This document shows, in pieces, positions 6,338 to 48,519 of a stretch of DNA of 53,472 nucleotides (the first letter of the stretch is position 1; every line of letters starts with the position of its first letter). The position numbers were made by a program, and so were the translations under genes. Below the pieces are notes generated by a model. That model made no database searches and was not told where the DNA came from. It saw nothing but the letters and a program-made list of their open reading frames with translations. Origin of the DNA: a virus (lineage: Duplodnaviria > Caudoviricetes); IMG/VR virus record IMGVR_UViG_3300031519_004379, positions 1 to 53,472 of that record. One strand, given 5' to 3'.

Positions 6338-7024
6338 TTATTTCTCCTCAAAAAGAATGTCGTTGACGTAATTTTCTTTGTCTTCTTCTGAAATACCCAT
6401 GGCAAGAATAGACCTGTGTAGGTGAGGATTCATCTTTTGATTAGCGCAATATTTATTCAGTATTGGAAGCGTATCACGGTTTGATACATATGCGTTCTCT
6501 TCCAAGTTTGTCATGTAATAGTCTACTAGGTCGTTAGTAATATCCATAAATTGATCTAATTCGTGACCATCTCGAATGTTGCCAACTGCAAGCATATCAT
6601 CTGAAAAGATTTCTTTAGCCCATGTTGGCAACTCACGAGGTTTATTCCATTCGAGACCCTTTACCATGACTTTCATATAGTCGCTGTATGGATGGTCATA
6701 GCCATGTAGAGGCGAAAAATCCATGAATGAACCTGTGATTTTATTAGGCCCAGCAACGATATCAAATCCTAAGATTGGAAGTTCAACCCCAACCTTAGGA
6801 AATACGTTGATGTGCATCAACCACAATGATTTTACGTCTGCTGGTTGGATAGTCTTTAAGTGACATTTACCAATAGTTTCAGATTCCCAAAACGTATCAG
6901 TCCAACCCTCAAACTGCCAATCATCCCTATATTTGGGATTGTCGTACCTAGTAAAATGATTATCAAATTGTGCAGCTAAGCTTTCCGCGTAATCATTCAA
7001 CCTATCCCAAAGTGGAGTGCTCAT
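6338..7024 (-). CDS. pcyX: Ferredoxin-dependent bilin reductase, PcyA/PcyX family
   Basis: LMHINVFP, LPILGFDIVAG, FMDFSP, RELPTWAKEIFS, YC.NQKMNPH motifs; downstream of heme oxygenase. Confidence 0.85.
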   Translation of the reverse strand: MSTPLWDRLNDYAESLAAQFDNHFTRYDNPKYRDDWQFEGWTDTFWESETIGKCHLKTIQPADVKSLWLMHINVFPKVGVELPILGFDIVAGPNKITGSFMDFSPLHGYDHPYSDYMKVMVKGLEWNKPRELPTWAKEIFSDDMLAVGNIRDGHELDQFMDITNDLVDYYMTNLEENAYVSNRDTLPILNKYCANQKMNPHLHRSILAMGISEEDKENYVNDILFEEK

Positions 7025-7257: not shown

Positions 7258-7800
7258 TTACTTGGACAACTCATCAAATAATTCAGACGCAAAGTCAAAG
7301 CATCGCTTAGCTTCATCTGCCATACCGTCGTGCAATAATTCTCTAAATTCCGCAATCAACACCTTGGTGTCGCCTTCGAATTCATACATAACACCAGCGC
7401 CCGGAGTTTTTGCTTTGATGATTTGACCGCCATGCAATTCACCAAAATGACGAACGTACATGTGAGCTAGTAGCCCATCATTATCGTCTGCATCAGACAA
7501 TCCTTGCATGTGTGATATACATCTGCCCACTGATTCAGGATAATGGTCGATGTCGTCAAACCCATAAATTTCACCCAGTTCCTCAATGTCTTTTAGGATA
7601 CGTGGGGCGCGATAGATTGCATTTAGATTTGGTGGGATGATTGCAAGTTTTTCCAGCATCTCATATACGATATACTGACAATTAAGAAATTTGTAATATG
7701 TGAAAGGATCAATGCCACCACTAATTAGTTGCTTTGCAAACTTTCTGCGTTCAGCGGCCTGATGGTGCGCCCAAGTAAGTTTTTTCAATTCCATAGTCAT
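7258..7800 (-). CDS. hemO: Heme oxygenase
   Basis: LKKLTWAHHQAAE (proximal His) and LLAHMYVRHFGELHGGQII (distal helix). Confidence 0.9.
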   Translation of the reverse strand: MTMELKKLTWAHHQAAERRKFAKQLISGGIDPFTYYKFLNCQYIVYEMLEKLAIIPPNLNAIYRAPRILKDIEELGEIYGFDDIDHYPESVGRCISHMQGLSDADDNDGLLAHMYVRHFGELHGGQIIKAKTPGAGVMYEFEGDTKVLIAEFRELLHDGMADEAKRCFDFASELFDELSK

Positions 7801-8734: not shown

Positions 8735-9045
8735 GTGTGCCACTTTTCTGTTGCTAGGTAAGTGGCCAACCCCCTGTGTTTACGCTGCTAGAGCGAAACC
8801 AGATGGTGCATAGTTATTGTTTGCACTTGTAGTTTTTGACCAATTACGCAGTCACCCGATAAACTCCACTTTCACTTTCACACCTGTCGATCCTATTTCC
8901 ACCCCATCATAAGTTCTTAGATTATTTCTCAGAATAAAAAGTAACACCCAACGGTGTAAATGCCCAACGGCCTAAGAACTTATGGTGGAGTGGTTGGGTA
9001 CTGCCCCCAAGTCCAGAATGTGTCCACGTTGCTTCAACGTTTACA
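8735..9045 (-). ncRNA. ssrA: Two-piece (circularly permuted) tmRNA, tag ANNNYAPSGFALAA
   Basis: Acceptor piece ...GGGGGCAGTACCCAACCACTCCACCA (CCA ends 8983) precedes coding piece GGGGTGGAAATAGGATCGAC (starts 8905); G3-U70 pair; tag frame 8824-8780; outer ends approximate. Confidence 0.92.
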
Positions 9046-9048
9046 AGT

Positions 9049-9078
9049 TATATATAACACAAAAAGGCCAGATGTCAA
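9049..9078 (-). promoter_or_regulatory. Sigma70-like promoter for tmRNA
   Basis: TTGACA at 9078-9073 followed by TATATAA -10-like element. Confidence 0.55.
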
Positions 9079-9134
9079 TCATCCAGCCTAATTGATTATT
9101 TTTGTGTGATATATTTGTCAGACTATCACGTTTC

Positions 9135-12202: not shown

Positions 12203-12424
12203 TCATTTTTCTTCTGTGACCAAAAAGTATCGGGAAAATGTTTTTTTGTCTTTCGTTTCCGATACCGCTTCAATCCTGTATCCATCATCCTTCAAAAAGC
12301 CAACGTAAGCCGCTAACCTAGTAATTCCGTACTCACTAATTGCTTCCCATGAAGTCATGCCATTTGTTGCATTTTCTAGGTGGTTTAGAACTTGTAGTTT
12401 TTGTGAAAGTTTTGGTTGTACCAT
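12203..12424 (-). CDS. Small winged helix-turn-helix protein
   Basis: SQKLQVLNHL...MTSWEAISEYGITRLAAYV..LK..GY.I; GGAG upstream of ATG 12424. Confidence 0.7.
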   Translation of the reverse strand: MVQPKLSQKLQVLNHLENATNGMTSWEAISEYGITRLAAYVGFLKDDGYRIEAVSETKDKKTFSRYFLVTEEK

Positions 12425-12497
12425 TTCTTTATCTCCATTATGGTTAATTTCCCTTCCATAATATGCCAAGTGGCATTCGTTGTCAACATTTATTTTA

Positions 12498-12719
12498 TTA
12501 TAACATATACTGCCTTATCCATTCTTTCAGTTCGTGGACGGTTTCTGCGTCTTCGAATGACTGGTCTTTATCCTCCGCTTCGGTTGTCTCACGGTCATAT
12601 GCTTCAGTAGCTTTCCGTTCAGACTCGACTGCTCCGCAGGTTGGGCAGATGCTGCTCGACATCGGGTTGGTGTGCTGTTCGCCACATTCACGGCACGGCT
12701 TGTGAGTTCTGTTGGTCAT
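12498..12719 (-). CDS. Small zinc-ribbon protein
   Basis: CRECG...CPTCG; TTGACA promoter upstream. Confidence 0.6.
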   Translation of the reverse strand: MTNRTHKPCRECGEQHTNPMSSSICPTCGAVESERKATEAYDRETTEAEDKDQSFEDAETVHELKEWIRQYML

Positions 12720-12808
12720 AGGTAATCTTCTTTCTGAGATGGCTACATTGTTTTTTGTAACTTCTGTAGTACGCTGATGATTGCTCAATGTCAACATTTA
12801 TTTTTATC

Positions 12809-12863
12809 TTGACATTGTTCTGTGGTCGTGTATAATAGGCTTATGCCTTATGATATATAAATA
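12809..12863 (+). promoter_or_regulatory. Tandem sigma70 promoter (TTGACA-N16-TATAAT) and T4 late promoter (TATAAATA 12856-12863)
   Basis: Exact consensus elements before the P450 operon. Confidence 0.7.
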
Positions 12864-12897
12864 GATTCAAACATAGTATTATTAAGGATAATAAATT

Positions 12898-13200
12898 ATG
12901 ACAACTCAAACCGTAGTTATCACACCATCAACAGAAATGTCTTCTTCTGCTAGTATTGATTATATCGCAAGTCTACTTCCAACAGCAGTTATAAATCATC
13001 TTGCAACAACTGCTGGCGTGACAAGAACAGTATCAACTTCATCCAATGGTAACACACATACAATTGTTACAACTTGGTCAGATGACACCGATAAAGAAAC
13101 GTTTAAAACATTGATGGCTGATGTGTCTTCTGGGGTCATATCTACTCTAGAAAGTGAAGGATGGGCTATCTCATTTACACCATTAACTGCTGATCTATAA
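12898..13200 (+). CDS. Thr/Ser-rich hypothetical protein, first gene of the enzyme operon
   Basis: AAGGA RBS, 100 aa. Confidence 0.7.
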   Translation: MTTQTVVITPSTEMSSSASIDYIASLLPTAVINHLATTAGVTRTVSTSSNGNTHTIVTTWSDDTDKETFKTLMADVSSGVISTLESEGWAISFTPLTADL

Positions 13201-13224
13201 CACACTCCCAATATAGGGTATATT

Positions 13225-14472
13225 ATGAGAAAAAATGACTTTGAAATTGTTAACCCCAATTTTCTATATCAAATGGACGAACACATTACCTTTTGTTTTG
13301 AAAATGAACCAAGGGGGTTCTTTTGGCATCCAATATATAAACACTGGATAATCTTCTCAATGGACAAGCTTAAAGAAGCTTCCAAAATGAATGAAGAATT
13401 TAGTTTAGCAAAAACATCACCAGCGCCTTTTGACCCAACACCATTAGGTGGTATATGGAGAGCAGGATATGCTCTTACACTTAGGGAAGGCCCACACCAC
13501 CATATTGCAAAGAAAGAAAGTTTGAATTGGGCTAAAAGACGTTCTAGCTTTATGATCGACACTTTAAAGTCGAACGTAGACAAATGGCTTGGTACTATAC
13601 AAAAAGGCAAACCGTTTATGTCATATGATGTTATTGGTAGAATTGTTACTGATACACAGATTCAAACCATCGAATTTCCTTGGGGTAAATTAGACGTAAC
13701 CGAAGATTTTGTAAAAGATGGGTTTCACGAATGGATGCGCCCCGGTGGTGTGTTCTCTAATTTCAACCCAGACTTTGACTATGATAAGCCAGTTGCTGAG
13801 ACCACAGAGTTTTACGGCATGTTTGCGCGTATTGTTGATGATGCCATTAAACATTATCACACAGAAGGTGTTGATGAAGATACGATGATTAACATGACAA
13901 AGAACCTAAGTGACAAGCAATGGGAATACAATGACAACCCCCACAGAATGGCATACATGTTCATTCAATCATTATGGACTGTCGTAATACCAACATTTGC
14001 TTTGAGTATGTACCAAAACCTTGTAATGAATCTTGCTATGTATCCAGATATAACAAAAAGAATAAAGGCAGATAGAACCCTCGTTTCAAAGTTTGCGCGG
14101 GAGAGTATGAGACTTGCCCCACTTAAAGGTGGTGTTCGTGACATTACGGAAGACTTGGATTACCATGGGTATAAGTTCGACAAGAATGGTCGTATCCTTC
14201 TGTATACATACGGTGCTAATCGTGACCCAAAATACTTCAAGAACCCATTAGAGTTTAGTTTGGAAAGAGATGACGAACCGCTTCCAGTAACTCTTGCTTA
14301 CGGGCCGCATCATTGCACTGGCGACTTCCTTGTCAAGCATTTTCTTGAGATGATTACTAATAGTTTGCTTGATAGGTTCGACAACTTTGAGATTACAAAA
14401 CAACCAGAATTGTTGCCAGCTATGTTTGGATCAACTACGGTGTATAAAGATTTGGGACTTGTTTTCTCATGA
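13225..14472 (+). CDS. Cytochrome P450
   Basis: ExxR (RESMR), GANRDP.YF.NPLEF..ER, heme-ligand loop AYGPHHCTG; 415 aa. Confidence 0.9.
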   Translation: MRKNDFEIVNPNFLYQMDEHITFCFENEPRGFFWHPIYKHWIIFSMDKLKEASKMNEEFSLAKTSPAPFDPTPLGGIWRAGYALTLREGPHHHIAKKESLNWAKRRSSFMIDTLKSNVDKWLGTIQKGKPFMSYDVIGRIVTDTQIQTIEFPWGKLDVTEDFVKDGFHEWMRPGGVFSNFNPDFDYDKPVAETTEFYGMFARIVDDAIKHYHTEGVDEDTMINMTKNLSDKQWEYNDNPHRMAYMFIQSLWTVVIPTFALSMYQNLVMNLAMYPDITKRIKADRTLVSKFARESMRLAPLKGGVRDITEDLDYHGYKFDKNGRILLYTYGANRDPKYFKNPLEFSLERDDEPLPVTLAYGPHHCTGDFLVKHFLEMITNSLLDRFDNFEITKQPELLPAMFGSTTVYKDLGLVFS

Positions 14473-14978
14473 TAGAAAATAAAGTTCTTTATGAGGTTTC
14501 TCCTGAGCTTTCTGCATTCATAGAAGAGTGCGGGAAGCTTGGGTATAAAAACAATAGTTCTTTAGATGCTATGAATTTCCAAAAAACTTTAGATGAAGGT
14601 GGTGCGTGGTTTGCAACTTATGTAGACGATAAAATTGTAGGCCTAAGTGGTGTACATAAATTTAGAGATGGTTACCGTGCATTATATAGAGGTTGTCAAC
14701 TATACTCACGATCTGGTGGGTTAAGTAAAAACCATATGAACTGTTGGATGTTTTATTATCACTTGCCAATGGCAATTTATTGTACAAATGGTCCTATATA
14801 CATTACTACTAATACGAGCAATGACGCAAGTGGTAAAATGTTGCGATTGGATAAATTATACCATATTTTAGCTAAAAAAACAATAGTAAAACATGTTAGC
14901 ACAGAAGAATTGTTTGGGGTCGAACAAAATATTTGGCTGTTACACGAAGAAAATTATATAAAGGCAAGAGGTGGTTAG
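14469..14978 (+). CDS. Hypothetical protein, possible GNAT-fold acyltransferase
   Basis: WFATYVDDKIVGLSGVH beta-hairpin is GNAT-like; ATGA-coupled. Confidence 0.45.
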   Translation: MIENKVLYEVSPELSAFIEECGKLGYKNNSSLDAMNFQKTLDEGGAWFATYVDDKIVGLSGVHKFRDGYRALYRGCQLYSRSGGLSKNHMNCWMFYYHLPMAIYCTNGPIYITTNTSNDASGKMLRLDKLYHILAKKTIVKHVSTEELFGVEQNIWLLHEENYIKARGG

Positions 14979-16170
14979 AATGATGAAGATTGCTGTATTA
15001 GGTGCTGGTAGTGCTGGTGTGCTAACCGCAGGTTGCATCCTCAAAGACTTTAGAAATAGAGGCATTGATCTTGAGCTTACTCATGTTTATGATTCAAGCA
15101 AACCAATTCTTGGTGTGGGGGAAAGCACGACATCAGAAGTAACCTTTGCTATCGGCCAAGCATTTAACTTCATTTTTGCAACTGAAGCTGCTGAGCTAAA
15201 GAGTACCACAAAATACGGTACGCACTATATCGATTGGAGAGAGAAAGACATCATCTTCCCATTTCAGTCAGGGTATCATGCTATCCACTTTGATGCAAAA
15301 GACTTTGTGAAAATGGGGTTTGAAAGACTGAATAAGATATACGAAAACTATACAACACTTGATGGTAATGTAGAATCTCTACTTCAGCATAAAGAAGATT
15401 ACACCAACGAACATGTTGCCCAACTGTTTATAGATGGAAAATATTATGAATTTGATTATGTGATTGACTGTCGTGGCAGGCCTGTTGATTTTACTGATTA
15501 TGAAGAATGTAATTTAGTTCTTAATTCTGCTTTGGTATACGATGATCCTAAACCATCTGACTTTGGATTTACTCGCCATGTTGCCCACAAATATGGTTGG
15601 ATGTTTGTGATCCCACTACAACACAGAACATCACATGGATTTCTTTATAATAATGAATTTTGTACACGCAAAGAAGCAGAAGAAGAGCTTATTCGTATCA
15701 CAGATGCAACAGACGATGACAGAGGTGGGTTTAGAACGTTTGATTTGAAACCATACTATTGTAGAAAAACTGTAGATGGTCGAGTGATTAAGAATGGCAA
15801 TCGCGCTGTGTTCTTTGAACCTATGAGTGCTAATTCTCTGTATATGGCAATCAAAAACATACAAATCTTTTCGGAATATATTAGAGGCGAAACCTCACAA
15901 GAAAGAGCGAATGAGTTGTGCATACTTAATTATCGTGCCGTCGAAGACTTGATTAACTTAATATATCACGGTGGGTCTATCTACGAAAACAAGTTTTGGG
16001 ATTGGGCAAAACAAACATCTTCTGCGCGTTTAGAGGCAACTGATGTTTTGAAAAGATACGTCGCAGGCCAAGACGATGAGATGTTCAAGACCATTACTGA
16101 AAGGTTTATGGGGCATCACGTACTTCGATATGTTGACAAAGAATTTGGGTTTGGGTATTTTCATGATTAG
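14971..16170 (+). CDS. Flavin-dependent tryptophan-halogenase-family protein
   Basis: GAGSAG, GVGEST, TTKYG, IDCRG, GWMFVIPL, FFEPMSA. Confidence 0.85.
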   Translation: MVRMMKIAVLGAGSAGVLTAGCILKDFRNRGIDLELTHVYDSSKPILGVGESTTSEVTFAIGQAFNFIFATEAAELKSTTKYGTHYIDWREKDIIFPFQSGYHAIHFDAKDFVKMGFERLNKIYENYTTLDGNVESLLQHKEDYTNEHVAQLFIDGKYYEFDYVIDCRGRPVDFTDYEECNLVLNSALVYDDPKPSDFGFTRHVAHKYGWMFVIPLQHRTSHGFLYNNEFCTRKEAEEELIRITDATDDDRGGFRTFDLKPYYCRKTVDGRVIKNGNRAVFFEPMSANSLYMAIKNIQIFSEYIRGETSQERANELCILNYRAVEDLINLIYHGGSIYENKFWDWAKQTSSARLEATDVLKRYVAGQDDEMFKTITERFMGHHVLRYVDKEFGFGYFHD

Positions 16171-16927
16171 GCAGTTTTATGATGATTATGACAACAAATA
16201 TTTCACTGATGTTATGGAGAATGGCAAGGTAATCCACACGTCAGGGTCAAGTGGCAAACCAAAGGCAATCAAGCAAACCCCAGAGAAAATATCAACAGAC
16301 GCTATCATAGCTTGTATTGTCCAGCGGATCAATCAGTCTAGTATAATATACACTTGTCTAAGCCCAGAACGTGCGGGTGGGTTGTTTGCCCAAACTATCC
16401 CTGCACTAATGGTAGGTGCAACTGTTGATCTAGTGAAGTTCAACCCATACACTTATGTGCGAAATGTATCTAAATACACACATAGCCACTTGACACCAAA
16501 ACAAGCCAAAGCCGTAATGAACACGAAAGGGTTTGATACTCTTGATCTAAATGGGCATGTCTTCTTAATTGGGTCTGAACCAGTTACTTACGATATCATA
16601 GAAACTTTTATTGAAAGAGGGGCGGAAGTCATACTGATATGGGGTATGAGTGAAATCGGTCCTAACACTATTATGCATAGACTTGTAAATATGGCTGAGG
16701 TAGCGAAAGTCAAAGCAATAACACCTTCTGGATCAGTTTTGCTTGGGAACATTATCAACTGCGATGTAAAAATTATGGATAATAATTGCTTGTGGGTTAA
16801 AGGTGAGACGTGTGTTTACGACGATTGGTTCAATACAAAAGATCAGGTAAAGATGGTGGACGGAATATTATTTTACACAGGTAGAGATGGCACTCCTGTA
16901 GATTTTAACAAACCTCGTAAAGGGTAA
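16163..16927 (+). CDS. Compact AMP-binding (ANL-family) adenylation enzyme
   Basis: HTSGSSGKPK, WGMSE, WFNTKD, FYTGR motifs; N- and C-terminal portions reduced. Confidence 0.75.
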   Translation: MIRQFYDDYDNKYFTDVMENGKVIHTSGSSGKPKAIKQTPEKISTDAIIACIVQRINQSSIIYTCLSPERAGGLFAQTIPALMVGATVDLVKFNPYTYVRNVSKYTHSHLTPKQAKAVMNTKGFDTLDLNGHVFLIGSEPVTYDIIETFIERGAEVILIWGMSEIGPNTIMHRLVNMAEVAKVKAITPSGSVLLGNIINCDVKIMDNNCLWVKGETCVYDDWFNTKDQVKMVDGILFYTGRDGTPVDFNKPRKG

Positions 16928-16929
16928 AT

Positions 16930-18981
16930 ATGACATACGATATTATAATTATGACCGAAGGCAGCGATCCCGTTTTTAATGTAGCAAGGGCTGTGGGTGG
17001 TTATAAAATTGCGTCGTTTTTACGAAACCAAGGTTATTCTGTTTTTGTATTAAATAACTTTACCCATTTTATGCAGAAGGGTAACATAAAGGAAATTCTT
17101 GATAAACTCATCGGTGACAACACACTATGGGTTGGGTTTAGCTCTTCTCTATTCATGAGAAAAAGTAAGGATGTTTATAATAAACGCCATACTCGTGATA
17201 GTGCAAGACAAAACATTCTTTGGCGCTGGCCTATCAGCGATGAAGAAGTCAAGGATATGACTGATTATATTAGGAACAAAGGTGTAAAAACTGTTTATGG
17301 GGGTATGATGACCTACTATCGCGCATCTGAAGTGCGTGAAAGTATAGATTACTTTGTTGTTGGTATGGGAGAACACCCTGCACTTCACATCACAGAACAC
17401 TTAAAAAATAACACACCTTTAAATTATAATAAAGAATATGGTGACTACCCATACGTTATCGATTACGATCAGAAAGGTGCGTTGTTTGACTTTAGGAATG
17501 AACGCGTAAACTACGTGCCAGAAGACTTCTGGAATGCTGAGGATGGCATGGGCATTGAGTTTGGTCGGGGCTGTATCTTTAAATGCAAATTCTGTGCCTA
17601 CCCTCTTATTGGCAAGAAGAAAGGTGACAACACGTTTCTTAGAGATAAAGAATGCATCAAGGCTGAACTACAACAGAACTATGATCTATACGGCACAACA
17701 AAATACGTTATCATTGATGACACCTTCAATGAACAGACTGTAAAACTTAGGGCTATCGCAGAAGCTATTGAGGAACTTGCTTTACCAGAGAAATTACAGT
17801 TTTCTTCTTTCATACGCATTGACCTTGTTGCTGCATTTCCAGAACAACTAGATTTGCTCAAAAGAATTAACGTGTGTGCTTGGTTCTTGGGGGTCGAGTC
17901 TTTGAATTATGATTCTGCTAGGTCCATTGGCAAAGGTTGCCCCAAAGAAAAAGTTTTCGATACAATAGAAAAGGCTAAGGAATACTTTGGTGGTTCTTTA
18001 AGCATATATGGTAGTTTCATAGCTGGATTGCCTCACGACAACAGAGAAACAATGGATGTATGGACTAAAGAACTTTTCGAACGGAAAGACTTGTTTGATG
18101 CATATTCGTTTAGTCCTTTAGAACTTGGCACGGCCTCTGAGCTTTCAAAGCGAAAAGAATACTTTGGATATACTATCGATGTACAGTCCAATATGGAAAA
18201 CAAATGGTCTAACCAATACTGGACAAGTGATGAAGTGGTTGAGTACGTGAAAGACTTACAAGAAGGTTATTTTGATGATATTAAAGTATCCACATTCTTC
18301 TTGATATTTTACCAGTGTCTTGGGTTTGAGTTTGAAGAGCTAAGAAAGATGACGTTCACTGAGTTGTTTACTAACCCGAAGATAAAAAGAAGAGCGCGTC
18401 AATATTTACACAAGAGTTACTACTCTAAGGTTGAAAAATTTCTTGGGGTTTTAAAAAGCGAACCCAACGTGAAGTACATGACTAATTTAGCAGTCAAGAA
18501 AGAATTGAAAGATGCTTTGATAGCAGAGTTTCATGAGAATGAGCATCGATCTAAAGCATTCACTGCTTCTAGTGAAACGGAAACAAAAACACTTGAGATG
18601 TTGCAAGTTGTACGAAGAGACGATATGGAAGACTGTGATATTGCTAATGAATTGGCATGGCAAGTTGCATCAGTTATTGGGTGTGAAGTATTCCCCCGAT
18701 ACTACAAGCAAGAAGCAGGTAGCCATCTAGCCGCCCATCGTGACCATGGCACAGCAACTGCTATAAATATAATCTTGAACGGTTCTGGGCCAATTACGTG
18801 GGATGAAGATATCGACGTATACTATGAATGTGCTCTATTAAACGTTCAGGAAATGCACAGCGTGTATTCGGATGATGATAGGATATTCCTTAAATTAGCA
18901 ATATTCGATAAGAGTTACGATGAAGTATTAAAAGCGATTGAAGGCAAAGAAGGAAAGGTTTTTGACATTGACTTATTATGA
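16930..18981 (+). CDS. B12-binding-type radical SAM protein with C-terminal 2OG-Fe(II)/cupin-like domain
   Basis: GRGCIFKCKFC, IIDDTFN, LGVESL, FIAGLP; C-terminal AHRDH...MHSV...RIFLK. Confidence 0.85.
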   Translation: MTYDIIIMTEGSDPVFNVARAVGGYKIASFLRNQGYSVFVLNNFTHFMQKGNIKEILDKLIGDNTLWVGFSSSLFMRKSKDVYNKRHTRDSARQNILWRWPISDEEVKDMTDYIRNKGVKTVYGGMMTYYRASEVRESIDYFVVGMGEHPALHITEHLKNNTPLNYNKEYGDYPYVIDYDQKGALFDFRNERVNYVPEDFWNAEDGMGIEFGRGCIFKCKFCAYPLIGKKKGDNTFLRDKECIKAELQQNYDLYGTTKYVIIDDTFNEQTVKLRAIAEAIEELALPEKLQFSSFIRIDLVAAFPEQLDLLKRINVCAWFLGVESLNYDSARSIGKGCPKEKVFDTIEKAKEYFGGSLSIYGSFIAGLPHDNRETMDVWTKELFERKDLFDAYSFSPLELGTASELSKRKEYFGYTIDVQSNMENKWSNQYWTSDEVVEYVKDLQEGYFDDIKVSTFFLIFYQCLGFEFEELRKMTFTELFTNPKIKRRARQYLHKSYYSKVEKFLGVLKSEPNVKYMTNLAVKKELKDALIAEFHENEHRSKAFTASSETETKTLEMLQVVRRDDMEDCDIANELAWQVASVIGCEVFPRYYKQEAGSHLAAHRDHGTATAINIILNGSGPITWDEDIDVYYECALLNVQEMHSVYSDDDRIFLKLAIFDKSYDEVLKAIEGKEGKVFDIDLL

Positions 18982-19540
18982 TACAGTAGACTTACCTCAG
19001 ACCGAAGGTCTATTAGAAGAAATAGACAAATTAAATTTAGAGTGGTTCCAACCTTCCAATCCAAATAGCGCTCAACAGATATGTCTAAATGCCGCACCGG
19101 GGTATACAGATGATTATAGCTTTGGTGCTGGATACTTCGCAGATAAAGGCAATTCAGACTTCTTCATTAGGCTCACACCACAAGGAGATGAGCGTATACC
19201 AATGTCGCCCAAGTCTGTGTATGATTGGGAATTGTGTGATGTGTTTAGAGGAACCTCACTTGGTTACATGTATATGGCAATAGAGACAAAATACAATGTT
19301 GGTAGAGTAAGGCTTTTGAAATCAAAACCATACACTTGTATGAACTGGCACATAGACCCGATCCCAAGATTGCACTATCCAATACAAACAGACGAAGCTT
19401 GTTTAATGATTATTGACAAAGAATTGCATCATTTGCCATTAAATACATGGACATTTGCGCATACAGATAAAGGAAACCACACTGCTTTGAACGCAAGCCA
19501 AATAGACCGCATACATTTAGTGGCTGATATATTACCATGA
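18938..19540 (+). CDS. 2OG-Fe(II) oxygenase, aspartyl beta-hydroxylase-like
   Basis: GRVRLL, WHID, RLHYPIQT, HTALNAS..DRIHLV. Confidence 0.75.
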   Translation: MKAKKERFLTLTYYDTVDLPQTEGLLEEIDKLNLEWFQPSNPNSAQQICLNAAPGYTDDYSFGAGYFADKGNSDFFIRLTPQGDERIPMSPKSVYDWELCDVFRGTSLGYMYMAIETKYNVGRVRLLKSKPYTCMNWHIDPIPRLHYPIQTDEACLMIIDKELHHLPLNTWTFAHTDKGNHTALNASQIDRIHLVADILP

Positions 19541-19725
19541 CAGAATTATTTGTTGTTCAATATGTGCTTGTAACTATACTTGCGATTATTGTAACTGAAA
19601 ATTTTGTACCGACAACGCAACCTTGGAATTGGAAAACGGCGCATAAAATAGAAAGATATATGGCTTGTTGTATTCCAATTTACAGAGAAGTGATTATGAT
19701 AATCATATTATGGAACAAGAAATGA
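19537..19725 (+). CDS. Small membrane protein
   Basis: ATGA overlaps at both ends; hydrophobic segments. Confidence 0.5.
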   Translation: MTELFVVQYVLVTILAIIVTENFVPTTQPWNWKTAHKIERYMACCIPIYREVIMIIILWNKK

Positions 19726-20336
19726 AATTTAGAAAAACAAATACATATTCTTTATTTGAACAGTGTGTACCTGATTACAGTTGGCAAAGTGTATTAGACT
19801 TTGGTGGTAATAGGGGGAACTTGTTAGATGGTGATATTAATGCTAAAAAGTATACGTGCCTTGATATTAGTAAAGAAGGATTAGACGCTCTGCCTGATGG
19901 TGTTAAGCGTATTCATTGGAACAGACACCACTCTTACTACAACTCTAATGGCAATCTGCACGAACCGTTTCCAAAAATACCGTGGCACGATATAGTATTT
20001 GCGAATAGTGTGTTTACACATCATACATTAGATGAGGCTCTTTATTGCATACACCACCTATCAAAATACACAAATAGGATTGTATTCACTTACATAGACC
20101 CAACTAATGATACTTTCTTGGAGAAGTTTCGAGAAAAGTATTACGATCTGAGATTTGAAGGTGGAAATGTTTCATATACACAAGATGAGAAGGGTATTCT
20201 TTGGAGTGCGTTTGATACTGAACATTTAAAAAGCTACTTAGATTTTCATCACATAAATACAGGAACCACAGATTGGTTTAACTACATGGACATTGAAGTA
20301 CGTCCACCTACAGCTTTTGGGGCTTTTGGATATTGA
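19722..20336 (+). CDS. Class I SAM-dependent methyltransferase
   Basis: VLDFGGNRGNL, YTCLDIS, DIVFANSVFTH. Confidence 0.8.
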   Translation: MKFRKTNTYSLFEQCVPDYSWQSVLDFGGNRGNLLDGDINAKKYTCLDISKEGLDALPDGVKRIHWNRHHSYYNSNGNLHEPFPKIPWHDIVFANSVFTHHTLDEALYCIHHLSKYTNRIVFTYIDPTNDTFLEKFREKYYDLRFEGGNVSYTQDEKGILWSAFDTEHLKSYLDFHHINTGTTDWFNYMDIEVRPPTAFGAFGY

Positions 20337-20980
20337 ACTTAATAATTCCAAGTAAAGTAATACTTATGCTTAGTGGAGGTTTAGACTCGGCAATACTTTT
20401 ATATTGTATTTGCAAGTATTATCCTAAAACTACAGTAATAACTGCGACAGGACGAAACATTTATTCGCCTTTTGACGCAGAAAAAGCAAAAGATATTTTA
20501 ATTTTTTTGCATAATACTTTTCCAAATAATAATATAATTAAGAGTTACGAATATGATCTTGATATAAAAAATAAAGTATGGTTGGAAAAGGCTAGGGATT
20601 TTAAAAACACTCGATTTGATACTGTTGAGAGTTTTTCTCAACATCTCCAGCAAGTTGATAAATTAGGTAGTATTAAATATGAAACGAATGTATACGATTT
20701 TATTAATGGAACAACCGCCAATCCTCCAATCAATATTCATGGACACCAAACAGCAAGATCAGGAAATGACTTGCCAGAAATACTCAACACTGGTAAAGAT
20801 ACAAAAATGTATATGCCTTGGGCTAATAAAGATAAAAAATACATAGCAAAAATCTATGAAGATGAAAATTTATTAGATAGTCTTTTTAAATTAACACGAT
20901 CTTGTGTAGATGCGAATCTGTTACAATGTAATGAATGTTTTTGGTGTTTAGAACGGGCGTGGGGATTTTTGGATAAATAA
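20333..20980 (+). CDS. QueC-like PP-loop ATPase
   Basis: LSGGLDS, LTRSC, CNECFWCLER.W. Confidence 0.75.
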   Translation: MNLIIPSKVILMLSGGLDSAILLYCICKYYPKTTVITATGRNIYSPFDAEKAKDILIFLHNTFPNNNIIKSYEYDLDIKNKVWLEKARDFKNTRFDTVESFSQHLQQVDKLGSIKYETNVYDFINGTTANPPINIHGHQTARSGNDLPEILNTGKDTKMYMPWANKDKKYIAKIYEDENLLDSLFKLTRSCVDANLLQCNECFWCLERAWGFLDK

Positions 20981-21008
20981 ACGAGTAACATCATATCAGG
21001 AGAACAAT

Positions 21009-21290
21009 ATGAAATTTGGCAACTTAGGCCGATATGGCTATTTAATTAATACTGAACACCTCGAAGAAGTTCGTTCTGGATATTTCCAACACATGTGGTT
21101 TGCTATAAAACTAAGTACCTTTGGCTTAGTCAATGCAATTACTGGATACACTCATGCGTTTATTCCGTTTTTGTTTCCCAACACTCCACACAGAATTACC
21201 TTAAGACAGGTTGAGTTAGCAGAAGAACTCATTGCTGAACTCAGGGGTGTAATCGAACGAGAAGATGCTGAAAAGGTTTCAAAAAAGTAA
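21009..21290 (+). CDS. Hypothetical protein
   Basis: AGGAG RBS; HLEEV..GYFQHM.FA...HAFIPFLF motif. Confidence 0.65.
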   Translation: MKFGNLGRYGYLINTEHLEEVRSGYFQHMWFAIKLSTFGLVNAITGYTHAFIPFLFPNTPHRITLRQVELAEELIAELRGVIEREDAEKVSKK

Positions 21291-22988
21291 ACCAAAGTTT
21301 TTAGAAATCATGTGAACCATTACGGTATTGTGTTCTGCAATTGCGGCTATTAGTTCGTACTTGCTCTTCTTGTGCATCATACTACCTTCCGTAAAGGCTT
21401 CAAGAGACTCGCTCATGTGTTTGAGATGCCATGTCTCTGATAGCCTATCGACTGGCACACCATTCATTTTGACTTTGAACGACATAATTGTTTCGTTATC
21501 ATAGCCAAACGAATCTTGGATTTGTGATGGGTATATCGAGTTTTCCTTTAGGTCTGTCATAACATCCAACACATCATGTATGTCAGAAAAGTACCCAAGT
21601 TTTTCCATCACTTTTCTACTCGCCATCATAATGCCAGTGTTGAACACATAGTTATCTGGTTCCATATCTTCCTCTGCCAACATCGCATGAGTATTCCAGT
21701 ATTTCGCCTCTGGTGATCTAAAGTCTTTGTCGTAATTCTTGAGGTATCTAGTGTCCCATAATTTTACGCCTGAGTCTTCAGCATTAGATGCGTCACAACA
21801 CAAGCAATGCTCAGCCTTTAGGTAGTTGAAGGCGTCAGTGTCACACGTAAAGTAAACGTCATAATCTACATACATCACCAAATCATAGTGATGAGTAAGC
21901 TTGTCTAGTAGGTGTACCTTGTATAGGTTAACCACATCATATTCTGATAGTTGTGGGAACTTGGCAAAAAACTTTTCATATTCTGCGTCTCTCGTAAAAT
22001 GCAGATAATTTGCACCAATAGATTTAGCGTAATCAGCGTGGTTTTGATACAGCCTGTCACTGTAATTAGCCAACCGTTCTTGGGTTCGCTTACTCTTATT
22101 GACAGGATCGTCTTTTGGGCCACGAGGGTTGTCTAGTCTTTCATCTGGTATCTCAATATATATTGAGAAAATTGCTTTCGTTTTATCGTTGAAGAAAACG
22201 TTAAACTTCTTGCCGATAATATGAGCTATCTCAATATTATCCCAATCCAATGGGGTTGGCTTCTCGCTGATGATACTATGCCATCTTTGGTCCATCACAA
22301 CGTATGGGATGCTTTCAGTCTCAAGTATATAAGAAAAGATAGACTCGTTGTTTGGATAGTAATACATTCTTAGGAATTTGAACTGGTCGTTGTCTATACC
22401 GTGTACGCGCAATGAATTGATCTTATCAATGATGTTCGGCAGTCTCTCAATAAACTTTATTTGTTTAATATGCTCTGCTTTAGCCACCATGATACCAGTG
22501 TTCATGACATGACAATCTTTGCCACCCAGCAAATCTTTGGTGATGTGATACTTCAATGTGGGGCTACGATTGCCAATACTTTCAAACATAACACCTTCTA
22601 TGTCGGTACTGGTAACCTTATCGGTTTGTGTTTGGATGTGGATGCCTTGCTCTAAATCTAGTTCATCAAACACATTCTTTTCAGTGTTGAATACCACATC
22701 CATATCAACATACATAACTTCATCATAATCTTCTGCCAACTCTGCCATGAGGTGGTGCTTATATAAATTAACTTTTGTGAATTCTAATCCAGCATCAACA
22801 TCAAAATTGCCCATAGTATTATAAAACAAAATAAACTTTACACCAATTAAACTATTGGCGTATTCTTCTTTGTTGGCAAGCAACCTATCAAAATATTCAT
22901 TGACCTGTTCAGTGGCGTAATGGTTCATACTCCATTTGTCATTTTCTTTTTCAATGTCATCGTATGTTGTAAAAATTACTCGCTTCAT
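21279..22988 (-). CDS. Tandem-duplicated GT-A glycosyltransferase-like protein
   Basis: Two copies of VNLYK..L...YD.VMYVDxDV and (M/F)NTGIM...NE. Confidence 0.75.
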   Translation of the reverse strand: MKRVIFTTYDDIEKENDKWSMNHYATEQVNEYFDRLLANKEEYANSLIGVKFILFYNTMGNFDVDAGLEFTKVNLYKHHLMAELAEDYDEVMYVDMDVVFNTEKNVFDELDLEQGIHIQTQTDKVTSTDIEGVMFESIGNRSPTLKYHITKDLLGGKDCHVMNTGIMVAKAEHIKQIKFIERLPNIIDKINSLRVHGIDNDQFKFLRMYYYPNNESIFSYILETESIPYVVMDQRWHSIISEKPTPLDWDNIEIAHIIGKKFNVFFNDKTKAIFSIYIEIPDERLDNPRGPKDDPVNKSKRTQERLANYSDRLYQNHADYAKSIGANYLHFTRDAEYEKFFAKFPQLSEYDVVNLYKVHLLDKLTHHYDLVMYVDYDVYFTCDTDAFNYLKAEHCLCCDASNAEDSGVKLWDTRYLKNYDKDFRSPEAKYWNTHAMLAEEDMEPDNYVFNTGIMMASRKVMEKLGYFSDIHDVLDVMTDLKENSIYPSQIQDSFGYDNETIMSFKVKMNGVPVDRLSETWHLKHMSESLEAFTEGSMMHKKSKYELIAAIAEHNTVMVHMISKNFGLLF

Positions 22989-23650: not shown

Positions 23651-24233
23651 ATTTCATTCCATTATACATATCAATTGGCGCTTCCATAAAATCGTTAGCA
23701 ACGCTGTTCACAAGACCATGATCGAAAGTGTTAAACTCCAACCCTTCATGGACTAAAAATCTATCTATACCTTTATACTTACGCATAAAGTAATCTTTGT
23801 TGGACATGAAGTGATCCCATATGTGGGTTTGTTCACCAGCAGTCCATGTGATTATCGAACTATTTATATGAACATCATAAGCATGTGGAGCCATGTATAG
23901 ATCGTCTTTCCAATAGTCTTTAAGGATAGTCAACCCATTCCATGTTAGAAGGGAGCTTGGGTCAGACTTAATATCCATATCAAGATCGAAAAACAGGCAC
24001 TTGCCTTTTACAGGGAAGTCAGCACTAAACATAGCAAGCTTGTTCCACCAAAATCTAAGTGTCGGCTTCGAAAAGCATGGGATAGTTTCAATCTCAACAC
24101 CGATAGGGTCTTCGGTATAACAAAAATACTCAGCCATAGGAAAATATTCCTTAAGCTGATCTCTTAATCTATTTACATGTTCGGGGCTATACTTATCACC
24201 GTGCTTTACAAATATGATATTATCTGGCTTCAT
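23625..24233 (-). CDS. Glycosyltransferase (GT-A)
   Basis: KHGDKYS..HVN.L, WWNKL, LFFDLD, NSSI, GID. Confidence 0.75.
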   Translation of the reverse strand: MKPDNIIFVKHGDKYSPEHVNRLRDQLKEYFPMAEYFCYTEDPIGVEIETIPCFSKPTLRFWWNKLAMFSADFPVKGKCLFFDLDMDIKSDPSSLLTWNGLTILKDYWKDDLYMAPHAYDVHINSSIITWTAGEQTHIWDHFMSNKDYFMRKYKGIDRFLVHEGLEFNTFDHGLVNSVANDFMEAPIDMYNGMKYELPRNNL

Positions 24234-25290
24234 TAATATTACCTCCAAACTCGTCATAAAACTTAATTGGTGTTCCATCAACAGAATCTAAGCACCAATT
24301 TTCTATTTGGATAATTAAGTGTTCTGCAACTGTATAATTTCTATAACCAGTAACAGTTTTTAATTCATCATTTAAATATTGAATAATCAATTGAATTTCT
24401 TTTGTCGGCATATGTTTAATAGTAACGTGCGACGGATACAAAATAGTGTTGTACCAAAGGTTGCATTCGTGTTTTTCGGTAAATCGCACAAACTCTATCA
24501 TCTCATCCCAGTTCATATTCATAGGATTAACCATAATAGATAATGATCGTTTGTTAATATGACAGTAATTTTTAAATATTTTAAAATATTTCATCAGCGT
24601 TTTAAAAGAACCGTTTACTCTAATCTTTTCGTAGCGCTTTTCAATTAAACTATCAATGCTAATATTTAAATGTATATTACATTTATCCAAAATACCTTGC
24701 ACACGTTTATTATAAACCGTACCATTGGTGGCGATGTTTACTCTTAACTGTGGATTTATTTCCGCGACTATATCTAATAGATTTAATAAAATCTTTTGTG
24801 CAAAAGGCTCTCCGCCATTTACTCTAAGTTCAGTAAGGTGAGGAATAAACTCTCGCATTTGATCTAGGAATGTATCATCAAAAATTTGTGGCAATGGTGG
24901 AAGGTTATCTCTGTTTTTACGAATACCACTGCTAAGATTGCCATTACACATAATACATTCAAGATTACATTGATTGCTTAATTCTATTTCCATCATAGAT
25001 GGCATATCGTTTACAGGAAACTTTTGATATGCTTTTGCTAAAGGCCATACATTATTATCAATATCTTTTTCACATTCTTTGCATCTATTTAGAAATTGGT
25101 TTTGTTTTAAAGCATCTCTGTATTTTTGAAAGTGTTCACCACGCCATATATCCATAAGCGATCTGTCTTTACTCCATTTGTCGCAGAGACCGGGGAGCTT
25201 CCAACAAGGAGAAACATTTCCTTGAAGTGTGATATACATATTGTTGAATGGCGCGTTGCAAGCCGTGCCTTTGCCGTATTTTTTTACCAT
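24220..25290 (-). CDS. Radical SAM protein with N-terminal SPASM/twitch domain
   Basis: CNAPF..PC; SNQCNLECIMC; GGEPF; TNGT; SIDS. Confidence 0.85.
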   Translation of the reverse strand: MVKKYGKGTACNAPFNNMYITLQGNVSPCWKLPGLCDKWSKDRSLMDIWRGEHFQKYRDALKQNQFLNRCKECEKDIDNNVWPLAKAYQKFPVNDMPSMMEIELSNQCNLECIMCNGNLSSGIRKNRDNLPPLPQIFDDTFLDQMREFIPHLTELRVNGGEPFAQKILLNLLDIVAEINPQLRVNIATNGTVYNKRVQGILDKCNIHLNISIDSLIEKRYEKIRVNGSFKTLMKYFKIFKNYCHINKRSLSIMVNPMNMNWDEMIEFVRFTEKHECNLWYNTILYPSHVTIKHMPTKEIQLIIQYLNDELKTVTGYRNYTVAEHLIIQIENWCLDSVDGTPIKFYDEFGGNINEAR

Positions 25291-26384
25291 AATAAAATTT
25301 CAGCCCAATCTTCAAATATTTCTTTAAAAGATTCTTTTCTTATTTTATCTAAAGATTTTGTTTTTTGATGAAACTCTAAGAGTCTATGATCTTCTTTAGT
25401 GTCCATGAATCTTATCACTTGTTTATATTCATCCCCTAATTTAATTTTAACTTCATTTTTAACATCGTTAGGCAAAAACTGAATATTTAAATATTTTGGT
25501 TCATGCAAAAACCCATTTGCCACAATAATGTCGTTTTGATTAGCCCAGCTATCTAAATCTTCTAAATGGTAAATATTAAAGTTGTTGATGGTTCTATATA
25601 ACTGAATTTTAAATTCGGGGTAATTACTTTTCATAGATAAGATATTAGTTTTAATTTTATTCCAATCAGAGTTGCCTCTTTGATATTCTAATCTATCACC
25701 AGTGTCGTCTATGCTTAGCGCAATATCTGTTTTTTTAAAACTAAGCATTTTGTCCATTAAAGAAGGATTGTAAAACATCCCATTAGTAGTAATTTTTAAA
25801 TATATGTTCTTGCAATATTCTGTACAGGAAATCAGTTCTATTAATTTTTTATTTTCAGAACTAAAAAATGGCTCACCACCAGTTAATTCTAAATATGATA
25901 TATTAGGCAGAATCTTTTCAAAGAAAACTTTTTCGTTATCTGTTTCTATAATTTTATTAGTTATATGATATGGGTCGAGGTTTCCTTGCTCCTTGGCTAT
26001 AGAGCTTGAAGCTTGGGGGCCGCACATTCTACATTTAAGATTGCACACATTAGATAATTTTAAATCTATTAACTGTGGAAGTGGTGTTTCTAAATCATAA
26101 TCTAAATCCCATATATCACTATATTTTTGCCGAAAACTTTTTACACCAACCGCTTCTTCTTTCCAACACCAGTTGCATTCTGAAGGCTCTTCTCCATCTA
26201 AAAAAGCTTGACGCAAAGCTTTGATTTCTTTTCCATTATACAATTCGTCAAGTGTACCATCTTTCATCCAAGGCATCTTGTATTTAATTTGTCGGTCAGG
26301 TTGTTCATATCTACAGCATGGTCTGATAGACCCATTAACATCTGTAGATATTCCAATCCATGGAGCGATACATAATCTACTCAT
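25284..26384 (-). CDS. Radical SAM protein with N-terminal twitch domain
   Basis: CIAPW..RPCC, CNWCW; SNVCNLKCRMC; GGEPF; LSIDD. Confidence 0.85.
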   Translation of the reverse strand: MSRLCIAPWIGISTDVNGSIRPCCRYEQPDRQIKYKMPWMKDGTLDELYNGKEIKALRQAFLDGEEPSECNWCWKEEAVGVKSFRQKYSDIWDLDYDLETPLPQLIDLKLSNVCNLKCRMCGPQASSSIAKEQGNLDPYHITNKIIETDNEKVFFEKILPNISYLELTGGEPFFSSENKKLIELISCTEYCKNIYLKITTNGMFYNPSLMDKMLSFKKTDIALSIDDTGDRLEYQRGNSDWNKIKTNILSMKSNYPEFKIQLYRTINNFNIYHLEDLDSWANQNDIIVANGFLHEPKYLNIQFLPNDVKNEVKIKLGDEYKQVIRFMDTKEDHRLLEFHQKTKSLDKIRKESFKEIFEDWAEILLW

Positions 26385-26733
26385 CGTTGAGCTTTTTAGA
26401 ACACATTAACATGCACAATCTATGAGGCTCGTCTGTGTCCCAAGATTCTGGCAAAGTTTTAGTGTACCATTCATGATTTAAAACTTCCATAATAGAGTTA
26501 TTTTCTAAATTTAATTCTTTTTGGTGTTTGTAATAAGATTGCATAACTGGGTGTGTTATATCATCAACCCCTTTTTTTAATATTGCGGGGTCGTTGTACT
26601 TATCAGTAACTTTAAACTTATATCCTTGATTGCCAAGATAACAACACGGATATACTTGCTTATCTGGGTTGATAAGTATTTTATTCATGTTCGCCCATCT
26701 ACATTCTATGTTGTTTTTATTTTGCATCTGCAT
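26377..26733 (-). CDS. Stand-alone SPASM-like Cys domain
   Basis: IECRW, VYPCCYL, CMLMC. Confidence 0.65.
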   Translation of the reverse strand: MQMQNKNNIECRWANMNKILINPDKQVYPCCYLGNQGYKFKVTDKYNDPAILKKGVDDITHPVMQSYYKHQKELNLENNSIMEVLNHEWYTKTLPESWDTDEPHRLCMLMCSKKLNDE

Positions 26734-27532
26734 CCTTTGGAGTCCACAATCCCCGCTTTACATGTTTATAACCAGTTTTTTTGTACCAATTATGATCTCT
26801 AATTGGACCAGCTTTACCACCTGAGTCAGTGAATAAAGTATTATCTTTGACAGTTACTTCTTCTAAAATTGCTTCATTTCCATTTTCGTCTACAAAAACC
26901 TGTTTTCCATTTTTATGAAATCTATTAGAAGGCTGTACTAAATTTCCTGTCATTCCTAATTCATTATAGCACATATCTAGTATTTTATCAAGGTAGTCTT
27001 CATTATGTTTAAACGCAATGACATGCGCAAAAGCATTTCCCCCAGCAGCAGTAAAACATTGAATATGAGATTTTAGCTTTTCAAAATCTACTTTGCGGCG
27101 ATAATTTGAATGCATTTCTTGATTAATACCTTCGACGTCAAATATAACTTGAAGTCTTTTGCTATCTAGTAATCCAACATTCCACCAAAACTCATCATCT
27201 CGCATACCGCCGTTTGTATTGATTTGAATATTTGCTGTCGAGTTATCTAATATGTATTTAAGTATTTTGTATATGTCTTTTGCCATAAATGGGTCGCCCC
27301 ACGTACCGCAAATTTCAAACCTACCAATTAGATGCATATCCCCAACACTAAATGTAGTTTGAAATTCTTCGAGTGTCCATTGAACTAATGGTAGCCAGTC
27401 AACTTTATCTAATCCGTTTGGATTTGTCCTATGACACTGTGGGCATCCTGCGTTACAATAAGTTGATAGGTCAACCCACACATTTAAGCATTTGCTTTCA
27501 TACAATTCTTTATATGGAACTATGCATTTCAT
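26717..27532 (-). CDS. Radical SAM protein
   Basis: STYCNAGCPQCHR, CGTWGDP, NTNGG, FKHNE. Confidence 0.85.
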   Translation of the reverse strand: MKCIVPYKELYESKCLNVWVDLSTYCNAGCPQCHRTNPNGLDKVDWLPLVQWTLEEFQTTFSVGDMHLIGRFEICGTWGDPFMAKDIYKILKYILDNSTANIQINTNGGMRDDEFWWNVGLLDSKRLQVIFDVEGINQEMHSNYRRKVDFEKLKSHIQCFTAAGGNAFAHVIAFKHNEDYLDKILDMCYNELGMTGNLVQPSNRFHKNGKQVFVDENGNEAILEEVTVKDNTLFTDSGGKAGPIRDHNWYKKTGYKHVKRGLWTPKDADAK

Positions 27533-47906: not shown

Positions 47907-47994
47907 TGGCAGAGAGACGGGGATTCGAACCCCGGGAACCTTGCGGTTCGGTAGTTTTCAAGACTACTAGTTTCAACCACTCACTCACCTCTCC
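47907..47994 (-). tRNA. tRNA-Ser(UGA)
   Basis: Cloverleaf, anticodon arm GTAGT-CTTGAAA-ACTAC, long variable arm, CCA. Confidence 0.95.
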
Positions 47995-48068
47995 GTTACT
48001 GAGCCGCAGGAGTTGGCTCGAATGTCGTCTAGCATTACCACGGGCGTCCCTCGTATCTAGATCAAACT

Positions 48069-48142: not shown

Positions 48143-48149
48143 GTTTATC

Positions 48150-48452: not shown

Positions 48453-48519
48453 TTTCTTTGTTGTTACTCATACTGTATAGAATCAAAACATAGTAGTGTC
48501 AACAGTTAATTTAAAAAAA

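Follow-up and report, generated by a model that had tools for sequence, protein, structure and literature searches.

The subject of this report is a cytochrome P450 gene carried by a phage. The gene lies in a stretch of 53,472 bases that makes up the whole of IMG/VR virus record IMGVR_UViG_3300031519_004379 and is referred to below as the window. We found that the window represents part of a T4-like marine phage of roughly 220 kb and that the P450, far from standing alone, heads a conserved enzyme operon. The explanation that we regard as probable, with real room for doubt, is that the protein is a functional, soluble, class-I-like haem-thiolate P450, which performs oxidative tailoring in a phage pathway with the help of host redox partners and belongs to a previously undescribed family, known to date from uncultured marine T4-like phages alone.

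The gene and the elements located in its translation are the following.
13225..14472, + strand: cytochrome P450, soluble and class-I-like, 415 amino acids, ATG start (Pfam, structure model, Foldseek, hhalign)
13939..14040, + strand: I-helix, residues 239-272, continuous (AlphaFold2 model, alignments, translation)
14101..14112, + strand: ExxR motif of the K-helix, ESMR, E293 and R296, invariant in 80 of 80 aligned sequences (translation)
14254-14268, + strand: meander, FSLER, with R348 (translation)
14293..14322, + strand: haem-binding Cys loop, LAYGPHHCTG, with the Cys364 codon at 14314-14316 (translation)

The Pfam p450 model (PF00067) matched the protein with an E-value of 1.1e-11 and 44.6 bits (gathering score 22.8). 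That the match was confined to residues 283-388 indicates a very divergent member. An alignment of 80 sequences (A2) was assembled from 30 rows of the family, including the window protein and two distant relatives, and 50 ordinary P450s. Residues E293, R296, N332, R348 and C364 were invariant in this alignment, and H92, R305, G360, H362 and G366 were conserved at 90% or more. The E-R-R triad, formed by ExxR and the meander Arg, is complete. The whole protein contains two cysteines, of which Cys364 is the conserved one, and its surroundings follow the ligand-loop pattern F-x-x-G-x-R/H-x-C-x-G, though Leu357 replaces Phe at position -7 in the main family.

The AlphaFold2 model built on the 80-sequence alignment had a mean predicted local distance difference test (pLDDT) score of 89.5 and a predicted template modelling (pTM) score of 0.90. 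A Foldseek search with this model returned at least 500 P450 matches in the PDB, the best with TM-scores of 0.72-0.80. The top fold matches were P450s alone, namely P450tol, the XplA haem domain, CYP153A, a CYP134A1 orthologue, P450BioI and CYP116B46, and identity to solved P450s was 14-19%. When the family profile (A1) was compared with the 50 ordinary P450s (A3) by hhalign, a match over 395 columns was obtained (probability 100, E 1.2e-50). This indicates homology across the full length and not in the C-terminus only. Judged from the sequence, the N-terminus has no hydrophobic anchor, which argues for a soluble, bacterial class-I-like enzyme. An earlier sequence-only reading of this DNA had proposed a P450 in a bacteriophage, recognised by ExxR, meander and haem-Cys loop. 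The PF00067 match, the motifs, the fold and the T4-type genes on the same contig bear this out; the translation contains all three motifs at the positions given for them, and the structure prediction suggested as a check gave a confident fold resembling solved bacterial P450s.

The I-helix departs from the pattern usually seen in this superfamily. The acid-alcohol motif A/G-G-x-D/E-T is typical of P450s, though not universal. At the place where it is expected, the window P450 reads VVIPTF (13981-13998), within SLWTVVIPT at residues 249-257. In HMMER alignments, both pairwise and with the family profile, the AGHDT of PDB 7v40 was set over V253-V254-I255-P256-T257. In the MAFFT alignment, A-G-x-E-T lay over V254-I255-P256-T257-F258, and hhalign treated I255 as an insertion and set T257 against the acid and F258 against the Thr. 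None of the three registers supplies an Asp or Glu, and a hydroxyl residue stands at the alcohol position in the HMMER register only. The earlier statement that A/G-G-x-D/E-T is missing and that SLWTVVIPT takes its place is thus correct in every register. Among 28 close family members aligned with MAFFT, the stretch MFIQSLWTVVIPTF was nearly invariant. More distant relatives carry VIPNF (P0159) and LIPNEF (P0162), so the conserved element is the Pro-containing V-I-P-[TN]-F. A second deviation, absent from the sequence-only reading, lies in the Cys loop. The Phe before the Cys ligand is a redox-tuning residue; 90% or more of the 50 ordinary P450s have it, and the window protein has Leu357 there, seven residues ahead of Cys364.

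The family was delimited by two protein searches. A word-indexed search gave 44 clusters at 64-88% identity, all environmental, nearly all exactly 415 amino acids long and located on contigs of up to 223 kb. In some sources, members are automatically annotated as cytochrome P450. Outside the 44 clusters there was a sharp fall to matches of at most 36% identity, all but a few of which covered about the last third of the protein. An exhaustive search of 1.84 billion representatives yielded 5,079 proteins at E ≤ 0.001 and four at E ≤ 1e-30: the representative of the window family (P0026, 74% identical), one full-length relative (P0159, 36%) and two fragments. The next match, P0162, had 21% identity (E 4.5e-23) and was followed by ordinary P450s aligned over the C-terminal third only; beyond P0159, other full-length matches reached about 21% identity or less. 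Members of the P0159 cluster occur on contigs of 19.7 and 59 kb, and the genomic context of P0159 itself was not found among the viral and metagenome contigs searched.

The customary limit of a CYP family is 40% identity, and we applied it through sequence searches and solved structures, without the CYP nomenclature database. No named member at 40% or more was found by this route; the best match outside the protein's own 50% cluster was the unnamed 36% relative. All NCBIfam P450 subfamily models scored at most 46.2 bits against cut-offs of 343-850, and PHROGs holds no family for the protein. As nothing beyond the family itself shares 40% identity or more with the protein, it is fair by this rule to speak of a new CYP family, as far as sequence comparison can tell. 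The sequence-only reading had proposed the same, and the close identity to an ordinary bacterial CYP that would contradict it did not appear. It had also described phage P450s as very rare. In a tblastn search of 50,697 deposited phage records, the window P450 gave no match at E ≤ 1e-5 and three weak ones (E 2e-3) when the limit was relaxed to E ≤ 1, and an ordinary P450 (P0164) matched one record at E ≤ 1e-3. Neither query recovered phage Adler, which shows the low sensitivity of this route. A pattern scan of 185,579 species genomes, made with two patterns only and therefore of limited sensitivity, detected no relative.

The literature gives a similar picture of rarity. In the part of the 2022 paper available to us (PMC9405906), Mycobacterium phage Adler is the only phage named as carrying a P450, giant-virus P450s are attributed to Lamb et al. 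2019, and no virus-encoded P450 redox partner is recorded as of 2022. No description of the present family came up in the literature search, which was confined to main texts; supplements could list the gene. The term P450 has 0 occurrences in the main texts of the tetrapyrrole-phage paper (PMC11480375) and of PMC7029224. The DNA itself is widely represented: near-identical sequence was present in 20 public runs, which belong to 10 marine and brine metagenome studies.

Selection on the gene was estimated by comparing the window copy with 12 of 17 IMG/VR loci, five duplicates or near-duplicates having been left out. The 415-codon frame was intact in all 12. The proportion of synonymous differences (pS) was 0.63-0.87, saturated in 8 pairs, against 0.06-0.18 for nonsynonymous differences (pN), and the ratio of the corresponding rates (dN/dS) was 0.03-0.06 in the 4 pairs with an estimable dS. 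Intact frames together with low dN/dS indicate a functional P450 gene under strong purifying selection.

The genomic setting of the gene, which the sequence-only reading had missed, was compared across 46 related loci. A P450 open reading frame (ORF) was called in 43 of them by ORF prediction and blastp, and the remaining three (L044, L045 and L047) carry the gene in truncated form. Judged by their P450 DNA, 30 loci are non-redundant; the counts below refer, gene by gene, to those with enough sequence. The features of the block, besides the P450, are these.
12809..12837, + strand: match to a sigma-70-type promoter (TTGACA / TATAAT), in the divergent intergenic region that precedes the block
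12898..13200, + strand: o100, small Cys-free protein of 100 amino acids, possible ABM/Dabb-like alpha+beta fold (Atlas structure lead, TM 0.54-0.60)
14469..14978, + strand: o169, GNAT-fold acyltransferase-like protein, 169 amino acids, start overlapping the P450 stop (ATGA)
14971..16170, + strand: flavin-dependent halogenase-like protein, 399 amino acids (Pfam Trp_halogenase, E 1e-31; phrog_2928, E 1.4e-66)
16163..16927, + strand: cut-down adenylate-forming (AMP-binding) enzyme, 254 amino acids (Pfam AMP-binding, E 1.5e-14)
16930..18981, + strand: B12-binding radical SAM enzyme, 683 amino acids, with a long C-terminal extension (Pfam Radical_SAM, E 3.7e-16)
18938..19540, + strand: o200, weak likeness to Asp/Arg-hydroxylase (cupin) (Pfam PF05118, E 0.0014, below the gathering score)
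19537..19725, + strand: putative small hydrophobic ORF, 62 amino acids, start overlapping the o200 stop
19665..20336, + strand: methyltransferase-like protein (Pfam Methyltransf_12, E 5.3e-5, below the gathering score)
20333..20980, + strand: PP-loop ATPase with a QueC-like C-terminus (Pfam QueC, E 5.9e-8; phrog_1550)

The strongest link in the block is the one between the P450 and o169. The GNAT-fold gene lay directly downstream of the P450 in 29 of 29 informative non-redundant loci, and an ATG or GTG overlapping the P450 TGA (as ATGA or GTGA) was present in 30 of 30. No sequence family was found for o169 in Pfam, PHROG or NCBIfam; its assignment comes from the model (pLDDT 86.1), which matched acetyltransferases in Foldseek at an E-value of about 1e-6 and TM-scores of 0.5-0.6. 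A predicted complex of the P450 with the GNAT-fold protein scored below the threshold for drawing any conclusion. Further downstream, the halogenase-like gene was present in 25 of 28 loci, the adenylating enzyme in 28 of 28, the B12 radical SAM enzyme in 22 of 22, and the cupin-like and methyltransferase-like genes in 15 of 16 each. In the three loci without the halogenase (L015, L016 and L042, with their duplicates L014, L035 and L036), the GNAT-fold gene is followed directly by the adenylating enzyme. In the related loci, the P450 was never seen apart from this block.

The halogenase-like protein matched Trp halogenases in the PDB at about E 1e-12 and is shorter than their chains of 497-551 amino acids. 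In the adenylating enzyme, the AMP-binding match covers only positions 167-374 of the 384-position profile, and NCBIfam matches are far below their cut-offs; its likely start at 16163 overlaps the halogenase stop, and the longest ORF begins at 16076. The 683-residue radical SAM enzyme has a weak Pfam B12-binding match and scores below the cut-offs of the NCBIfam B12 radical SAM methyltransferase families. The 62-residue ORF is mostly skipped in contigs of two runs (X14 and X16), which lack 172 bases at 19547-19720 and represent a strain variant.

Upstream of the P450 the order is looser. No Pfam, PHROG or NCBIfam family was found for o100, which directly precedes the P450 in 18 of 28 non-redundant loci at 39-51% identity and so is not a fixed part of the operon. 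Elsewhere its place is taken by the QueC-like gene, whose position varies and which is upstream of the P450 in some loci, or by another gene. The promoter match at 12809 is the sole 12-of-12 match in 12400-21400. Promoter-like sites as a whole were not in excess of shuffled sequence (36 vs 32.4 ± 5.5), so a promoter function of the 12809 site can only be inferred.

These data allow a mechanism to be proposed. The P450 is the conserved first enzyme of an operon-like block preceded by a match to the consensus sigma-70 promoter, in the order P450, GNAT-fold acyltransferase, halogenase (where present), cut-down adenylating enzyme, B12 radical SAM enzyme, cupin-like protein and methyltransferase, and its translation would be coupled to that of the GNAT-fold gene. 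During infection it would bind haem, use O2 and carry out one oxidative tailoring step, either a hydroxylation or an oxidative coupling. Its substrate would most likely be the same small molecule or appended group that the neighbouring enzymes acylate, halogenate and methylate. Electrons would come from a host ferredoxin and ferredoxin reductase. Since the I-helix, with VVIPTF and the conserved Pro256, offers no acid, proton delivery cannot follow the textbook acid-alcohol relay; it would have to be assisted by the substrate or by water, or else the enzyme would perform coupling-type chemistry.

Several results weigh against this proposal. The three alignment methods differ by one residue in the I-helix, which makes the alcohol position either T257 or F258, and the Phe commonly found ahead of the Cys ligand is a Leu. 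The make-up of the operon is somewhat flexible, as 3 of 28 loci lack the halogenase and different genes occupy the upstream place. The block contains no recognisable carrier protein, nonribosomal peptide synthetase, polyketide synthase, cyclodipeptide synthase or precursor peptide. The search for a redox partner was negative, in records that are only 23-39% complete. Finally, contigs from RNA libraries (four runs, two samples, one study) match 12844-14250 and the greater part of the operon with an identity of 99% or more. As these contigs take in opposite-strand genes too and extend past the promoter on its upstream side, with unlike sequence there, DNA carry-over is possible and the contigs are no proof of transcription.

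A narrower form of the proposal, which we put forward tentatively and consider possible at best, assigns the P450 to the opening or closing step of a phage pathway to a halogenated, C-methylated and acylated aromatic compound or appendage, built while the phage infects marine alphaproteobacteria. The I-helix, acid-free and with its Pro, would then reflect coupling or rearrangement and not simple hydroxylation, and the reaction would be the formation of a C-C, C-N or C-O bond on a substrate resembling indole or phenol that the halogenase would also use.

The supply of electrons bears on the first alternative. The sequence-only reading had noted no ferredoxin in the window, and the profile search agrees: the window and four related fragments gave no match to Fer2 or Fer4_15, and the window and three of these fragments (all but the record of L004) none to flavodoxin. 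The phage does encode the following tetrapyrrole genes.
6338-7024, - strand: ferredoxin-dependent bilin reductase
7258-7800, - strand: haem oxygenase
45889-46866, - strand: uroporphyrinogen decarboxylase
A phage that encodes a ferredoxin-dependent bilin reductase and a haem oxygenase makes the use of host ferredoxin by the P450 plausible.

It could be argued instead, in line with the peroxide-shunt or rearrangement chemistry that the sequence-only reading had suggested, that the enzyme needs no redox partner at all and works as an H2O2-driven peroxygenase, or in an oxygen-independent manner by rearranging an oxygenated substrate. An enzyme that works without partners would be convenient for a phage, the window and the related fragments searched showed neither ferredoxin nor flavodoxin, no I-helix register contains an acidic residue, and Pro256 is conserved at the place where CYP152 peroxygenases carry an Arg-Pro pair that binds the substrate carboxylate. 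However, V254 and I255 precede Pro256, with no Arg beside it. The CYP152 model (NF053744) scored 37.9 bits against a cut-off of 600, below the equally sub-threshold models for TxtE (TIGR04458, 45.6 bits vs 500) and for cyclodipeptide-synthase-associated P450s (TIGR04538, 46.2 bits vs 500); no cyclodipeptide synthase or NOS partner was among the Pfam matches of neighbouring genes. By sequence as well as by fold, the closest P450s are monooxygenases of class I that depend on redox partners, and the fragments searched for ferredoxin are far from complete. Moreover, EryF, CYP158A2, CYP121 and CYP134A1 lack the acid-alcohol pair and are nevertheless dependent on O2 and ferredoxin. We therefore consider a partner-free P450 unlikely.

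A second alternative treats the P450 as a stand-alone auxiliary metabolic gene acting on a host lipid, a sterol-like compound or a xenobiotic, its position next to the other enzymes being accidental. Unrelated genes do collect in phage islands, the gene upstream of the P450 is variable, as the counts for o100 show, and the nearest folds include the alkane and fatty-acid hydroxylases CYP153A and P450BioI. This role is disfavoured by the invariant translational coupling, seen as the overlap of the P450 stop with the GNAT-fold start in every non-redundant locus. In addition, the downstream gene order has been kept despite saturated synonymous sites, and the P450 was outside the block in no locus found. 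We judge a stand-alone role to be quite unlikely, and the tailoring role within the phage pathway remains our preferred explanation.

The phage origin of the contig is supported by its other genes. The window encodes a DnaB-like helicase (phrog_19, E 4.6e-126), a UvsX-like recombinase (phrog_97, E 5.2e-85), a gp32-type single-stranded DNA-binding protein (phrog_224, E 5.5e-116) and gp59. For this replication module the best DNA matches were T4-like phages, namely Phage C48C1 (Kyanoviridae), Caulobacter phage Cr30 and the Sinorhizobium phiM12 group. A T4-type replication and recombination module thus lies on the P450 contig, as is expected of a T4-like carrier related to Straboviridae and Kyanoviridae. 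IMG/VR estimates the completeness of the record at 24%, from which a genome near 220 kb follows, and proteins of the window P450's own 90% cluster are located on contigs of 217-223 kb. No structural genes were found in the window, and no tail-fibre gene was identified there. That the window is a mis-binned bacterial fragment with an ordinary CYP, or that its P450 is a catalytically dead haem-binding or structural relic, is very improbable and essentially excluded: one protein of the family carries the deposited name 'cytochrome P450 [bacterium]' (MDB4348978.1), the Pfam match spans the C-terminal third only and two canonical motifs deviate, but the T4-type genes share the contig of a virus record, family members occur on the long contigs just mentioned, the species-genome scan gave no relative, all haem and fold residues tested are invariant and dN/dS is low.

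Other features of the window place the block in its wider surroundings.
8736-9082, - strand: permuted transfer-messenger RNA (tmRNA), alphaproteobacterial type (Rfam RF01849, 114.7 bits; tag peptide ANNNYAPSGFALAA predicted by ARAGORN)
21279-22988: two-domain GT8 glycosyltransferase, adjoining the operon block and the SPASM radical-SAM array
24220-27571, - strand: radical-SAM/SPASM run, with two SPASM plus radical SAM proteins of 356 and 366 amino acids, a 118-residue ORF and a radical SAM protein of 284 amino acids
33751-37234, + strand: curli-type secretion set, with CsgG (E 3.2e-46), two weak curlin-repeat proteins and a FecR-domain protein
39501-41555, + strand: CHASE2 sensor fused to an adenylate/guanylate cyclase domain, 684 amino acids (phrog_35576, end to end)
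47907-49069, - strand: five tRNA genes, Ser-TGA, Trp-CCA, Asn-GTT, Thr-TGT and Leu-TAG

The type of the permuted tmRNA suggests that the host is probably an alphaproteobacterium. In the radical-SAM/SPASM run, the 118-residue ORF matches SPASM weakly, with a score slightly under the Pfam threshold, and the GC content is 31-33% compared with about 40% elsewhere. The operon block is located between the replication module and the curli-type operon. In the part of PMC7029224 available to us, a similar curli-type set is described in pelagimyophages, and the host recognition cluster is placed between VrlC and gp14, in the structural module. We considered whether the block corresponds to that cluster and rejected this assignment, as its site is that of the other hypervariable region described in the same text.

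The protein is a genuine and moderately surprising P450. Its family recurs in at least 30 distinct marine phage loci under strong selection, while phage P450s are otherwise close to unknown. If the block makes or attaches a compound, chemistry in the style of secondary metabolism would extend to T4-like phages, and a compact (415 amino acids), soluble P450 scaffold with a VVIPTF I-helix and Leu for Phe would be at hand. Should the aromatic pathway outlined above be real, it would be the first P450-dependent pathway of natural-product type native to a lytic phage lineage, and one widespread in marine metagenomes. The haem oxygenase, bilin reductase and uroporphyrinogen decarboxylase in the same phage raise the question of whether it manages haem supply for a haem enzyme of its own.

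Among known P450s, P450tol, a class I monooxygenase of Rhodococcus coprophilus (PDB 7v40/7v41), was the best sequence match of solved structure (phmmer E 8e-20, residues 68-401) and had the best Foldseek E-value (1.3e-17, TM 0.72-0.74). Both proteins have a soluble single-domain fold, ExxR and the Cys loop. They differ in that identity is 18-19% and the I-helix of P450tol reads AGHDTT where the phage protein has VVIPTF; moreover, P450tol is encoded on a bacterial chromosome and does not belong to the phage operon. The I-helix of the CYP153A alkane and fatty-acid hydroxylases is canonical, and these enzymes work with ferredoxin and ferredoxin-reductase partners of their own. In structure they were the most similar (PDB 5fyf, 8hge and 8hgt; TM 0.77-0.80), with sequence matches at about E 1e-15, 18-19% identity and no gene context in common.

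The acid-alcohol pair is missing from both XplA and CYP134A1 (CypX), the latter having Pro in place of the Thr. Given what is generally known of their I-helices, these two appear to be the best functional analogies for the Pro-containing I-helix of the phage enzyme. The XplA haem domain (PDB 2wiy) and CYP134A1 (PDB 7ow9 and 3nc3) matched the model with TM-scores of 0.75-0.76 at 14-16% identity. XplA is fused to a flavodoxin and CypX is encoded beside a cyclodipeptide synthase; neither partner is present for the phage P450.

In the viral structure library, the best match and the one other phage P450 was A0A6J5NCR8, 'CypX cytochrome P450 [uncultured Caudovirales phage]' (E 6.5e-15, TM 0.71, 14% identity), and the 18 matches at E ≤ 0.001 had 10-17% identity to the window P450. 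As far as the available parts of the sources go, the P450s of phage Adler and of giant viruses, like A0A6J5NCR8, are encoded by the virus without a virus-encoded redox partner, which is so far also the case for the window P450. Within the same limits, what is not described for other viral P450s is the setting that characterises the window family, namely its wide occurrence in marine metagenomes and its place in a conserved multi-enzyme operon.

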